A DNA stretch of 64,000 nucleotides, taken from positions 188,619 to 252,618 of the forward strand of contig CALSSQ010000001.1 of assembly GCA_943789065.1 (NCBI GenBank). The letters run 5' to 3'. Source of the stretch: an uncultured Candidatus Actinomarinales bacterium (GTDB lineage: Bacteria; Actinomycetota; Acidimicrobiia; Actinomarinales; Actinomarinaceae). A model generated the notes under the pieces. That model did not search any database. It was not told the DNA's origin and saw only the letters and a list, made by a program, of their open reading frames with translations. The position numbers and the translations under genes are program-made. Below are positions 1 through 32,121 of the stretch, piece by piece. How positions within the stretch are numbered: the stretch's first letter is position 1; every line of letters starts with the position of its first letter.

Positions 1-1626
1 GCTGGCTGGGTCACTGCTGTAGAAAATCAATCAGTAGATATTGATTCATCTCAAACATATACGTTGGAAGATCTTATAGTTGGTGACACAATTGCATGGA
101 GATATTATGCACTCAACTCTTCTTTAGCAATTCCAGCTAATGGTGTTGACCCAGTTTCTGATTCAGATTATACAACAGTTTCAAGTCCTCCTACTCCTGG
201 AGATGGCTGTAATACAGCAGCGTCACTAGCCTCTACTACTTTAGGTACATGTTCAGGTGCTTCTGTTGACTCAACTCTTTCTATAGATGTAAATACATAC
301 ACTGATAATTTTGAAAACGAAGACAATATTTCTACAACACCACTTAAATATTACGTACAGTATCGAATAGATGATGGAAGTTGGACCGACCACACTGCAG
401 AAAGTGCCGCATTTGGATCTGGGTCCGGTAGAGATTTAGTGAACGCAACGGCAACATTTACCCAAGCAGTACCAGATGGAAGCACAATAGATTGGAGATA
501 TCAAGCTAAATATGATGGTGGTAGCTTTGCTGCTATAGCTGATGCACCTGTAATTTCAGCAAATGATGGTGAGGCAGTAGAGTGTCCATACATCAATCCA
601 ACTGCTTCCAGTGCAATTGGCTCGTGTTTGCAGACTGTAAGTGGGACTAATGATGGTCCAGCAACTTCAACGTTTACAATGCAAAACGCAGCAGCAACAA
701 GAAACGCGTACTTCTTCGTTGAATACAAAATCAATGATGGTGATTGGATCGAAAAAGACACTAATACACAAGTTGCAGCTGATGCAACGGAGACCTTAAC
801 GGTCGATGTTCCACATGGCTCGACTATTACTTGGCGGTATAAATCATCTATTACACCAAGGGACTTCTCAACAGGGTCGTATACAACATTAGATGAAAGT
901 GCAGCTGTCAATTGTCCTGTACTTGTAGTTACAGCAACACTAACACCAACTGCGTCTTGCCAAGATGGTGTATTTACATCATTTATTACTATTCAAAATC
1001 TAGACTCATCAAATATTTCTGGATTCATACAAGCTTATTATTCATTTGATAACTCTACATGGACAGCCGCTACATTTTCTGGAGCTGACGTAACAGACTT
1101 AGAGATTCAAGACAATACAGCGAAAACACTAGATGGAGTTGTCGTGCCTGGAGGTTCAACAATTTACTGGAGATATGAAGAAAGGTTGCCAAGTGGTTCT
1201 TTTACTAATACCTATGTAACAACAGGTCCAAACTCCACTGCATTATCAATCGCAGCAGACTGTCCATTACTTGAGCCAACAGCATCAGTTGCATTAGGGG
1301 CATGTAGCGGTAGTTCAAAAGCATCAACGCTGACAATAGATAACTCTCTATCAAATATTTCAGGATTTTTTAAAGTGGAGTACCGTTTTGACGAAAATGG
1401 ATGGGGTGAAGCAGCAACAAATGACGAAATAGCTGCTGGAGCATCTGCAACGTTCTCGGCAAGTGTACCAACGGGTAGTTCCATTACTTGGAGATATCAA
1501 ATTTCAGATACAAGCAATACGTTTACAGAGGATTATATCGTTACTGCATCAAGTGATGAAGTGTCTTGTTATACAACTGGTAATGCCTTTGCTACTTCAG
1601 TTGCGTACTGGCTGTGGATATCCTGA
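1..1626 (+). CDS. Cys-bounded repeat surface protein, cassette 1 (5' end outside window; N-terminal part of a frameshifted gene continuing to 2590)
   Basis: Frame 1 is open from base 1 (AGWVTAVENQSVDIDS...). Four complete ~100-aa repeats with motif C..C..STxT..N..YFxVxYxxxxGxW..VPxGSTIxWRY..VxC, the same repeat as in 4573-8436 and 16725-27968. Confidence 0.85.
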   Translation, partial: AGWVTAVENQSVDIDSSQTYTLEDLIVGDTIAWRYYALNSSLAIPANGVDPVSDSDYTTVSSPPTPGDGCNTAASLASTTLGTCSGASVDSTLSIDVNTYTDNFENEDNISTTPLKYYVQYRIDDGSWTDHTAESAAFGSGSGRDLVNATATFTQAVPDGSTIDWRYQAKYDGGSFAAIADAPVISANDGEAVECPYINPTASSAIGSCLQTVSGTNDGPATSTFTMQNAAATRNAYFFVEYKINDGDWIEKDTNTQVAADATETLTVDVPHGSTITWRYKSSITPRDFSTGSYTTLDESAAVNCPVLVVTATLTPTASCQDGVFTSFITIQNLDSSNISGFIQAYYSFDNSTWTAATFSGADVTDLEIQDNTAKTLDGVVVPGGSTIYWRYEERLPSGSFTNTYVTTGPNSTALSIAADCPLLEPTASVALGACSGSSKASTLTIDNSLSNISGFFKVEYRFDENGWGEAATNDEIAAGASATFSASVPTGSSITWRYQISDTSNTFTEDYIVTASSDEVSCYTTGNAFATSVAYWLWIS

Positions 1627-2590
1627 GGCAATAGCAAACTTCAGTGCTTCAGTACCATCTGATGTTCAATCAGCTGCATTTTTTGACGTTCTCTACAGGA
1701 CAGATATGACAGGGCCATTTACTCCTTTAGGAACCACAGTCGTTGCTCCAGGTGAGACGGTAGCTATTGGCAATATAAGTGTACCGTATGGTTCTTCAAT
1801 TCAATGGATGTATAAAGTTACAGCTGAAGAGGGTGCTGATGGAACATATTTTAGTACGGACGTGCTTACTCCTGAATATGAGTCATATGATCCATGTAAA
1901 CCTGATCCACCAGTTACAACGACCACCACCACAACAACAATTCCAGTTGTTGAGCCTATATTTAAACCTATTATCACAAATGTGAGAGTTTGTAATGATG
2001 ATGGAACAGCCTCATATGGGTTGACTGTTGATAACACCAACTCAAATGTCTCGTTAAGTATTACAACTTTAATGAAGATTGAAAATGTAACCGTTGTAAA
2101 CACGAATTATCAAGTTGCATCAGGTGAAAGTAAATTTATCACTACTGTAGCTTCTGTTCCAGAGGGCTCATATTATAGGATTAAATTCTTTGTTTCTGAT
2201 GGGGCTGGGGGAGGAACTTCAGTAGGTGTTTTCAAGAAATTAACAGATTGTTATGAAGACACAAGTGATTCAACAACCACAACAACCAGTCCACCAATAA
2301 CAACTCCAGAATCGGAGGAGTCACAACAGGTATGTGATACAGGATTTGATGGAAGTTGTGATACGCCTTTAACGGAGGATGATGGAAATGACTTCTTCGA
2401 ATGGGATGATTACGATGAAGATGTGTACTTAACTGATGGTAATTATGTTGTTCAGTATGTTTATACGGAAGATGAACTCCCCATTGCTGCAACAGGTATT
2501 TTTCTAGAACTGTACGTATTCTTTTTTGTAATATTTTCTTCAGCAGGTATTGTCCTCATAAACTGGTTACCTCGTAGAAGAAGAGGCTAA
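1463..2590 (+). CDS. C-terminal part of cassette 1 surface protein: last repeat, Thr-rich linker, basal Cys domain, IAATG sorting signal, TM and RRRR tail (+1 frameshift near 1606-1617)
   Basis: Frame 2 becomes repeat-like from about 1607 (TGCGYPEA...VPYGSSIQWMY...YDPC). IAATG at 2483-2497 is followed by a hydrophobic helix and PRRRRG. The ORF-track N-terminus (1463-1606) is out-of-frame junk. Confidence 0.8.
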   Translation: MYQRVVPLLGDIKFQIQAIRLQRIISLLHQVMKCLVIQLVMPLLLQLRTGCGYPEAIANFSASVPSDVQSAAFFDVLYRTDMTGPFTPLGTTVVAPGETVAIGNISVPYGSSIQWMYKVTAEEGADGTYFSTDVLTPEYESYDPCKPDPPVTTTTTTTTIPVVEPIFKPIITNVRVCNDDGTASYGLTVDNTNSNVSLSITTLMKIENVTVVNTNYQVASGESKFITTVASVPEGSYYRIKFFVSDGAGGGTSVGVFKKLTDCYEDTSDSTTTTTSPPITTPESEESQQVCDTGFDGSCDTPLTEDDGNDFFEWDDYDEDVYLTDGNYVVQYVYTEDELPIAATGIFLELYVFFFVIFSSAGIVLINWLPRRRRG

Positions 2591-31253: not shown

Positions 31254-32121
31254 TTTAACTTTAGTCACAGTTCTTTTTATTGTTTTATTTATAGGAGTCT
31301 CATACATATATGTACTTGATAATCCAGTCGAGATAGATATTCAAGCAACAATAGGAAATGCTACAACCACATCAGCTCCAGTAACTACAACCACATCAGC
31401 TCCAGTAACTACAACCACATCAGCTCCAGTAACTACAACCACATCAGCTCCAGTAACTACAACCACATCAGCTCCAGTAACTACAACCACAACAGCTCCT
31501 GTAACTACAACCACAACAATTCCAACTACTACAACAACCATAGAAGTTTCTCAAGAACAAGAAGAAGTAATCATTAACACAAACAGTGAAGAGGATACAG
31601 AGATTTACGAGGGTGAGTTCACATCATTTGATGGTTTTGAAGGAGAGAATCAATTACGGCTTAATGAATTAGTTGCTAGCTTACCTGATGAATTAAGAAA
31701 AAGTGTAGAAAGTAGTGTGATATTTGTCAATGGTTGCCATTCTTACGCAGCAACAATATTAGAAAGATGCCCTTTTGGAGTTTGGGATTCCGCAGGCACT
31801 TTTGCAGATGGAACAGTTAATTCTAAATGGAAGTTATCGGTTTGGGTGTCAAATAAAGCTTTCGCAAACAACCGTGGGTATGATACGTTACTTCATGAAA
31901 CCTCGCATGCACTTTCTTACTTAACAAGAAACTGCATAAATCCAGAAGGCGAAAAAAAACGTATAGAAGCACAAGAATTTTTTGGTAGTGAGGAATTATT
32001 TGCTGACGCTTTAGCGATCTACTACGGAGGAGATTACGCTTATTACAGAGAGAATATTGCTTTACAAGATTCTGAAAGAGAATTTTTAGACAACTACATT
32101 GCTCTTTGCTGTGATAATTAA
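31243..32121 (+). CDS. Membrane-anchored, Thr-stalked HExxH zinc metalloprotease-like protein
   Basis: N-terminal TM, (SAPVTTTT)n stalk, HETSH at 31894-31908, EELFADALAIYY; paralogue of 12510-13433. Confidence 0.75.
   Translation: MNRNLTLVTVLFIVLFIGVSYIYVLDNPVEIDIQATIGNATTTSAPVTTTTSAPVTTTTSAPVTTTTSAPVTTTTSAPVTTTTTAPVTTTTTIPTTTTTIEVSQEQEEVIINTNSEEDTEIYEGEFTSFDGFEGENQLRLNELVASLPDELRKSVESSVIFVNGCHSYAATILERCPFGVWDSAGTFADGTVNSKWKLSVWVSNKAFANNRGYDTLLHETSHALSYLTRNCINPEGEKKRIEAQEFFGSEELFADALAIYYGGDYAYYRENIALQDSEREFLDNYIALCCDN
31361..31504 (+). repeat. 24-bp tandem repeat, 5 perfect units plus 1 degenerate (in-frame VNTR)
   Basis: Unit ctacaaccacatcagctccagtaa at 31361, 31385, 31409, 31433 and 31457; variant at 31481. 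Confidence 0.95.

Follow-up and report, generated by a model that had tools for sequence, protein, structure and literature searches.

The 64,000-nt window analysed here (positions 188,619 to 252,618 of contig CALSSQ010000001.1, assembly GCA_943789065.1, from an uncultured Candidatus Actinomarinales bacterium) carries, over positions 1–32121, three diverged paralogous cassettes in tandem, which encode giant repeat proteins ending in sorting signals, sortases, TetR regulators, a polytopic membrane protein (MEM) and a HExxH protein (HEX). We consider it probable that this region is a surface-fibre island of Candidatus Actinomarina composed of three old paralogous cassette types, with fibres anchored by their own sortases and controlled by TetR, and with MEM and HEX acting on the fibre. 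Each cassette would make a single giant secreted fibre of Cys-clasped repeats ending in a sorting signal, and the class-E-like sortase of that cassette would cut the signal of its own fibre and join it to the cell wall.

All cassette genes lie on the plus strand. Cassette 1 consists of substrate 1 (1–2590, its 5′ end beyond the window start), with the sorting signal IAATG, a free sortase (sortase 1, 2597–3811) and TetR-a (3832–4470), and has neither MEM nor HEX. Cassette 2 contains a fusion of substrate 2 and sortase 2 (4573–10435), in which the signal LAATG and a transmembrane (TM) helix lead into the sortase, followed by TetR-b (10439–11077), MEM2 (11081–12517) and HEX2 (12510–13433). Cassette 3 is made up of TetR-c (16012–16626), the 3750-aa substrate 3 (16716–27968) with the signal LPVTG, a free sortase with a RecA C-terminal domain (sortase 3, 27968–29629), MEM3 (29629–31253) and HEX3 (31243–32121). 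In this assembly, both the fusion gene and MEM3 are split over two frames.

A first-pass annotation, made from the sequence alone, had described the region as a triplicated five-gene cassette for anchoring, regulating and shedding large surface proteins, possibly as a variable coat against phage or grazers. Its gene content and order match the open reading frame (ORF) listing and translations, the stop/start overlaps that it listed (TGATG, TAATG and ATGAATAA) are present between cassette genes and indicate translational coupling, and its guess of a streamlined planktonic actinobacterium (G+C content ~ 35%) as host was right. The three paralogous cassettes also stand, with the correction that five separate genes occur in cassette 3 only and that cassette 1 lacks MEM and HEX. 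One border has to be moved as well: TetR-a, previously assigned to cassette 2, is most likely part of cassette 1, because it starts 20 nt after sortase 1 and ends 102 nt before substrate 2, and because the order in relatives is sortase-TetR-MEM-HEX. Since the same order of three cassettes was repeated in independent assemblies (related loci L008, 99.55% identical over 20.9 kb, and L009), it is not an assembly duplication. Linkage counts given below derive from clusters of tblastn matches in 146 related loci (L numbers), which were fetched by HEX/MEM similarity and include close strains, and are thus not independent samples.

Anchoring of the fibres by their own sortases, the first function proposed for the locus, is well supported; the domains and motifs were observed, and the chemistry would be that of the sortase family. 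All three sortases matched PF04203 above the Pfam threshold (E = 3.9e-31 for sortase 1, 1.1e-29, and 1.4e-27 for sortase 3), with the catalytic His, Cys and Arg motifs visible as GHRTTYG, LTTCHPK and (Q)RL(I/V). In each, a conserved cytoplasmic domain is flanked by two TM helices, so that sortase 1, for instance, reads TM1, cytoplasmic domain, TM2 and catalytic domain. Correspondingly, every substrate ends in [LI][AP]xTG, a hydrophobic TM helix and a basic tail (RRRR in substrate 1).

The fibre proteins are built of Cys-clasped repeats of ~ 105 aa placed on a Thr-rich linker and a basal domain. Substrate 3 contains ~ 30 such repeats and 62 Cys residues, mostly paired ~ 14 residues apart; Pfam gave only sub-threshold beta-sandwich matches for these repeats and no named repeat family. 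Sortase-anchored giant fibrillar adhesins are known in Gram-positive bacteria, and the proteins described here resemble them in having a long tandem array of beta-sandwich-like repeats on a stalk with an LPxTG end. They differ in the unnamed repeat family with its Cys pair ~ 14 residues apart in each unit, and in their host, a cell of minimal size that lives free in the plankton, not a host-associated bacterium.

Class E sortases of Actinobacteria act on LAxTG substrates, an example being SrtE1/SrtE2 of Streptomyces coelicolor with the chaplins. The class E model NF033747 was the best NCBIfam match of all three sortases, with 121.9 (sortase 1), 119.6 and 109.3 bits, values below the model cutoff of 160. 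The likeness extends to the sortase fold, the His/Cys/Arg motifs, the phylum and the sorting signals of cassettes 1 and 2, as both IAATG and LAATG fit LAxTG. LPVTG of cassette 3 does not, and the signals of relatives are divided in the same manner (LAATG, LAETG, LANTG, LADTG and MADTG versus LPVTG and IPFTG), type 3 thus using LPxTG or IPFTG. Apart from the sub-cutoff scores, the present sortases depart from class E in their two TM helices and cytoplasmic domain, in being dedicated each to one giant neighbour instead of serving as housekeeping enzymes, and in the cis fusion of type 2.

The class C model came second among NCBIfam matches (77–100 bits) and a dedicated sortase adjoins its substrate, both of which one would expect of a pilus or fimbria operon of the Corynebacterium or Actinomyces kind, in which a class C sortase links the substrates into a covalent fibre. 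However, class E was always the better match (109–122 bits), LAxTG is the class E motif, every sortase is accompanied by a single giant substrate of 1,950–3,750 aa rather than by a set of small pilin subunits, and no pilin Pfam domains were found in the window proteins. We therefore regard a pilus operon as very improbable.

In cassette 2, fibre and sortase form one polypeptide, in which a signal peptide, N-terminal domain, repeats, Thr linker, basal domain, LAATG, TM helix, RKK, cytoplasmic domain, second TM helix and sortase domain follow one another. This arrangement was kept in all 32 type 2 loci with enough sequence, and the sortase was free in all 16 type 3 loci. A metagenome set added 32 further fused loci with LAATG or LAETG, plus a clade with MADTG. 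A word-based search of limited reach for giant sortase-fused proteins outside the lineage returned 13 matches, all at least 58% identical and all from relatives. The helix of the sorting signal doubles as the first of the two membrane helices of the sortase. Conservation of the fusion was observed directly; what we infer is that self-cleavage between T and G of LAxTG would leave the fibre anchored and release the sortase as a separate membrane protein.

The cytoplasmic part of sortase 3 contains a RecA C-terminal domain (PF21096, E = 2.7e-16) at window positions 28205–28375, corresponding to amino acids 83–137. The same domain (60–70 bits against a cutoff of 27) was present in the cytoplasmic part of five out of five type 3 sortases from other species (L128, L131, L134, L136 and L139), with no RecA core attached.

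A further feature of the substrates was an acidic-aromatic motif, GEEGNDFFxWDDxxEDxYxTDGNYxxQYxYxED, located directly before [LI]AxTG in type 1 and type 2 substrates. It was found at window positions 2400–2500, 9150–9330 and 27830–27900, was 74% identical between substrates that are otherwise diverged, and was degenerate in type 3. The motif is likely where the sortase, MEM or HEX docks.

The distribution of the cassettes among relatives bears on how the three came to stand together. Homologues of HEX (223 matches) and MEM (497 matches) came from marine metagenomes and from Acidimicrobiia/Acidimicrobiaceae records, and the 120 matches listed for each were all at least ~ 60% identical. A search with the MEM profile against one genome per prokaryotic species gave 55 loci, 50 of which were titled Candidatus Actinomarina, OCS155, Actinomarinales or unnamed Actinomycetota/Acidimicrobiaceae; the other five were short contigs filed under other taxa and are probably mis-binned. 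In relatives, the cassettes lie upstream of rho or SBF-rho, with thrC on the other side wherever the left flank could be seen. The type next to rho takes one of two forms. Type 2 comprises a fused sortase ORF with [LM]AxTG, an optional TetR, MEM2 and HEX2 (32/32); type 3 has the sortase as a gene of its own after a giant substrate, followed by MEM3, HEX3 and SBF (16/16), and an [LI]PxTG signal was read in six of the 16 loci as well as in this window.

Cassettes occur singly (L004, L066, L075, L087 and L092) or in combinations: type 1 with type 2 (L022 and L023), type 2 accompanied by a type 1 substrate that lacks a sortase of its own (L006 and L020), and all three types (this window, L008 and L009). 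All-versus-all blastp placed the cassettes at only 23–52% identity to each other (sortases 34–38%, TetRs 23–32%, MEM 30–52%, HEX 46%, substrates 25–36%), and so they are old and not the product of a recent triplication. As a description of an event, ‘triplicated’ is therefore misleading, and the region is better seen as a variable island in which ancient types have accumulated.

Three frameshifts of 1–2 extra bases each, all inside surface-protein genes of this assembly, could suggest a different history, namely a recent triplication now in decay, with substrate 1, substrate 2 and MEM3 as pseudogenes or as genes phase-variable by slippage. The first frameshift (~ 1606, substrate 1) is an extra T relative to L006, where substrate 1 is one ORF. 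At the second (~ 8432, substrate 2) the window reads CACAGATAG, as opposed to CAC-AATAG or CAC-GATAG in five relatives, and the fusion ORF of L008 is intact at 1953 aa. The third (~ 30618–30621, MEM3) consists of two extra bases compared with L139, L131 and others, and an intact 532-aa MEM3 orthologue (P0242) was identified. Contigs from four metagenome runs, each from a different study, omitted the extra bases at 100% of depth wherever the sites were covered (at 1606, three of the four DNA runs were informative and the fourth had no depth), and three metatranscriptome runs likewise omitted those at 1606 and 8432. None of the three indel sites is a homopolymer.

Two of the sites, 8432 and 30618–30621, appear to merge two alleles, A/G being read as AG and CCGCAA/CCACAG as CCGCACAG. 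This pattern suggests consensus errors from a mixed population, and other genes of the assembly may carry the same kind of error. The three frameshifts look like errors of this assembly, with the genes intact in nature, and the pseudogene or phase-variation reading was rejected on the basis of all relatives and the contigs of four studies. Given also the age of the copies, a decaying recent triplication seems to us very unlikely.

Regulation by TetR was the second function proposed for the locus, and comparison of loci lends it support. TetR-c matched PF00440 with 31 bits, above the cutoff of 24, TetR-b fell just below it (21.9 bits) and TetR-a had no Pfam match and only a weak match to AcrR. 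The three are nevertheless mutual paralogues (blastp E = 3e-12 to 3e-36), TetR-a and TetR-b being 32% identical with E = 3e-36. The 16-bp palindrome TTAGAACAGATTCTAA (4529–4544, no strand), situated 29 nt before the start codon of substrate 2, is the sole exact TTAGAA-N4-TTCTAA in the 64-kb window. One exact palindrome was found in each of 19 loci, in 15 of them immediately upstream of the fusion gene, compared with ~ 0.6 matches expected by chance over all loci (our own estimate from base composition). Four additional loci (L004, L066, L092 and L118) had a palindrome with one mismatch at the same place, and upstream of substrate 3 only degenerate versions occur.

Two loci of a clade without TetR in which the gene start was covered, L075 and L087, lacked both an intergenic region and the palindrome before the fibre gene, which in L075 begins ~ 14 nt after thrC. 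Because the palindrome co-occurs with the cassette TetR and is absent from both of these TetR-less loci, the two are reasonably supported as a putative regulator-operator pair, in which a TetR repressor would most likely bind TTAGAA-N4-TTCTAA upstream of the fibre gene. TetR stood between sortase and MEM in 54 of 80 loci and is thus an optional component. In one type 3 clade, an exact palindrome was located between HEX3 and the SBF transporter gene (L134, 11960–11975; L137, 12036–12051; L140, 12011–12026; L142, 6445–6460), and the same regulator may therefore also control SBF in that clade.

MEM is composed of a signal peptide, a beta-sandwich ectodomain, a Thr stalk and ~ 8 TM helices. Structure search matched the ectodomain to FN3 structures (Foldseek probability 1.0, E ~ 6e-3); this was the only part of MEM to give a fold match, the TM part of the model being too uncertain. 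MEM2 had no Pfam match. Against NCBIfam it aligned to NF041501, ‘FGLLP motif-containing membrane protein’, over profile positions 22–173 of 312 with 32.6 bits (cutoff 150), and hhalign of MEM with a true NF041501 member gave 96.8% probability and E = 3e-10 over 261 columns. The TM modules share the motifs VTFFYEG, G(F/L)IFGF and LEG..F..LP. When the MEM profile was searched against 1.84 billion representative proteins, only 14 close representatives (E < 1e-30) were found, followed by a weak tail of true NF041501 members (185–274 bits). These observations support MEM as a distant relative of NF041501, probably a receptor-like membrane module on a far branch of that family. The ectodomains of NF041501 members are variously NHL, Kelch, PPC, Ig or LamG-like, and some members have a C-terminal HD-GYP domain or zinc ribbon; because the ectodomains vary in this manner, the TM module of MEM looks like a membrane-spanning unit for signalling or scaffolding whose ectodomain can be exchanged.

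Some MEM-family proteins have ectodomains of other kinds: P0245 lies between a dehydrogenase-like gene and DinB genes, and P0247 near a secreted 1816-aa protein without a sorting signal. Two such paralogues (in L148 and L149) lie away from any sortase, and hence the TM module is not specific to sortases. At L149, on a 318-kb contig of 34% G+C, the MEM paralogue has a Cys- and acid-rich ectodomain and stands beside the secreted 1816-aa protein (genes at 4039–9489 on the minus strand, 10001–12037 and 12086–13278), with two small secreted Cys proteins alongside and a second, weak MEM-like match at the locus start.

HEX has an N-terminal TM helix, a Thr-rich stalk and a 180-aa C-terminal domain. 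In 24 homologues, H108, E109, H112, E140, E141 and four Cys residues were invariant, and in the AlphaFold2 (AF2) model (mean predicted local distance difference test score, pLDDT, of 86) the HExxH motif falls in a helix spanning residues 102–117, so that both an HExxH on a helix and a conserved downstream Glu pair, as in zincins, were found. HEX3 is 46% identical to HEX2, and an exact look-up found no identical sequence to HEX3 on record. The stalks are encoded by DNA repeats, a 27-nt unit in 9.4 copies (100%) at 12595–12848 in HEX2, and a 24-nt unit in 6.5 copies (98%) at 31361–31515 in HEX3. Stalk length seems to vary by repeat number, since strains with identical catalytic domains have HEX2 proteins of 253, 289 and 307 aa.

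No Pfam or NCBIfam family matched HEX above threshold, and its profile retrieved no peptidase from PDB sequences at E ≤ 10. The recurrent sub-threshold Pfam matches were SprT-like (14 of 24 members), followed by M91, M78 and Zincin_1. In Foldseek, lethal-factor chains scored best (E = 0.17–0.3, TM-score 0.33–0.50, none significant), and the further weak matches, namely BlaR1, YbeY, selecase and snapalysin, were all zincins. As judged from its conserved residues and model, HEX is an orphan zincin-like domain that is extracellular and probably disulfide-bonded, and it may act as a protease. Shedding, the third function proposed for the locus, would depend on HEX, which keeps the HExxH, the Glu pair and four Cys and matches no protease family above threshold; release of the fibre would be a presumptive role.

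A functional parallel to such a role is found in Clostridioides difficile, where the metalloprotease PPEP-1 (Zmp1) is associated with the sortase-anchored adhesins CD2831 and CD3246 (PMC8610288, PMC5569036, PMC6447587). Both systems follow the same logic, in that a gene for a sortase substrate lies beside one for a metalloprotease that is, or may be, able to release it, and HEX has an HExxH with a downstream Glu. Unlike PPEP-1, HEX is tethered to the membrane on a Thr stalk, carries four conserved Cys and has no PPEP/ATLF sequence match, and the locus is associated with TetR as opposed to the c-di-GMP riboswitches of C. difficile. The PPEP family has been reported from Firmicutes only (PMC8610288). 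PPEP-1 was not among the 50 listed fold matches of HEX, and membership of HEX in PPEP-1/ATLF (M34, PF07737) was rejected by sequence, with no PDB, Pfam or NCBIfam match.

As a presumptive function, MEM and HEX would most likely cooperate on the outer side of the membrane in processing or release, with the cognate fibre or the site where it is anchored as their target; genomic linkage and gene fusion both bear on this. MEM was directly upstream of HEX in 93/93 cases and HEX directly downstream of MEM in 80/85 (the exceptions being L105, L106, L125, L127 and L143), and a sortase domain was found no more than 1.5 kb upstream of MEM in 80/80. The stronger argument comes from the paralogues: there are two MEM/HEX pairs, each accompanied by its own sortase and substrate type, and in this window both are present, each behind its cognate sortase. 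In a few genomes (P0047 of 470 aa at L005 581–1993, P0106 of 491 aa, and L086) the FN3 domain of MEM and its stalk run directly into the stalk and domain of HEX, with the 8-TM module lost; this natural fusion argues that MEM and HEX act together.

MEM and HEX may instead be general envelope proteins, a membrane receptor and a wall-remodelling metallopeptidase, which are neighbours by synteny and have no role with fibre or sortase. Occurrence of MEM-family TM modules elsewhere without a sortase, the many unrelated ectodomains and outputs of true NF041501 members, and the absence of HEX from five of 85 loci would all agree with such a role, as would the fact that Actinomarina genomes are highly syntenic (PMC7771536). 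It is harder to reconcile with the two paralogue pairs that each keep to a sortase and substrate type of their own, with stop and start codons overlapping those of sortase or TetR genes, and with the unbroken MEM-HEX adjacency, and we consider it rather unlikely. Co-occurrence of MEM and HEX with sortases had been set beforehand as a check, and its outcome was divided, with the orthologues always beside a sortase and distant MEM-family members away from sortases (L148 and L149).

In Pseudomonas fluorescens, LapA-LapG-LapD forms a switch by which an adhesin is retained or released. Like the cassettes, that system groups the gene of a giant repeat adhesin with those of its dedicated protease and of a polytopic membrane protein, and c-di-GMP phosphodiesterase (HD-GYP) outputs occur in some members of the MEM family. 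However, the proteins of the two systems belong to unrelated families, and the cassettes differ in their Gram-positive-type envelope, sortase anchor and MEM without a cytoplasmic output domain, which makes this an analogy only. Taken to its full extent, it would make each cassette a self-contained machine for building, anchoring and releasing fibres, in which the cis-fused sortase of type 2 frees itself as it anchors its fibre, the stalked FN3 domain and 8-TM module of MEM gate the stalked HEX as a receptor-controlled switch in the manner of LapD and LapG, and the fibre is shed at the acidic-aromatic motif. We hold this complete version to be doubtful, and prefer the broader reading of a surface-fibre island in which MEM and HEX act on the fibre.

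Several observations weigh against this broader reading too. HEX has no significant match to a protease family or a solved structure (best Foldseek E = 0.17, best Pfam E = 0.026), the AF2 model of MEM2 is poor (pLDDT 57), and in L148 and L149 the MEM-family proteins, whose ectodomains differ, have no sortase nearby. TetR is missing from 26 of 80 loci and HEX is missing after MEM in five of 85. In a streamlined genome that is highly syntenic (PMC7771536), moreover, synteny counts as weak evidence. Finally, expression data were equivocal: RNA contigs bridged substrate 1-sortase 1-TetR-a, sortase 2-TetR-b, TetR-b-MEM2 and MEM2-HEX2, and they also bridged the divergent intergenic region 15821–16011 between a beta-propeller gene and TetR-c. 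Because of the latter, DNA carry-over in the RNA contigs is possible and operon structure is ambiguous. The sequence itself was present in many marine metagenomes (95–99% of sampled words), and metatranscriptomes held up to 92% of sampled words.

Cassettes 2 and 3 are parted by the beta-propeller gene, which lies on the minus strand (13643–15820) and is also present in L008–L010 and L012–L014. It encodes an SBBP protein (PF06739, E = 3.8e-19) that is membrane-anchored and carries a Thr stalk and, at its cytoplasmic N-terminus, an IF2_N-like domain (PF04760, E = 2e-6, 27.8 bits). Beyond the propeller gene of L013 lies a HEX-like gene (41% identity) in inverted orientation. The right boundary of the island is formed by an SBF-family transporter (32173–33033, plus strand) and rho (33171–34517, plus strand), followed by DUF1385, prfA, prmC, sua5 and glyA. 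A general scan for promoters and terminators gave fewer matches than in shuffled sequence and was hence uninformative. Nine proteins had no matches to PADLOC defence models at E ≤ 0.01, and a reading of the locus as an anti-phage defence system was rejected on these grounds.

Neither the 2020 genome paper on Actinomarinales (PMC7771536) nor the 2026 preprint covering 84 complete genomes (bioRxiv 10.64898/2026.04.03.716425) mentions sortases, LPXTG or giant proteins, and literature searches on natural sortase-substrate fusion, ‘FGLLP’, and Actinomarinales together with sortase returned nothing relevant. The first-pass annotation had named no described system of this composition, and in agreement with this we found no paper describing the gene set, which also lacks the features of a pilus operon. 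As a kind, the locus is known, being a sortase-dependent surface-protein locus; what is unusual about it is the conserved cis fusion, the two-TM sortases with a cytoplasmic domain, and two lineage-restricted partner families.

Candidatus Actinomarina, as yet uncultured, ranks among the smallest free-living bacteria of the surface ocean and also among the most abundant (PMC7771536; bioRxiv 10.64898/2026.04.03.716425). The fibre cassettes take up ~ 32 kb, roughly 3%, of the genome analysed here (longest contig ~ 1.02 Mb), and the fibres likely influence how the cell meets phages, grazers or particles. Joining a sortase to its own substrate in a conserved natural fusion would be a novel means of coupling secretion, anchoring and enzyme supply, MEM and HEX represent two uncharacterised families tied to sortase biology, and the putative TetR-operator pair would offer a handle on regulation that is rare in a genome so poor in regulators.

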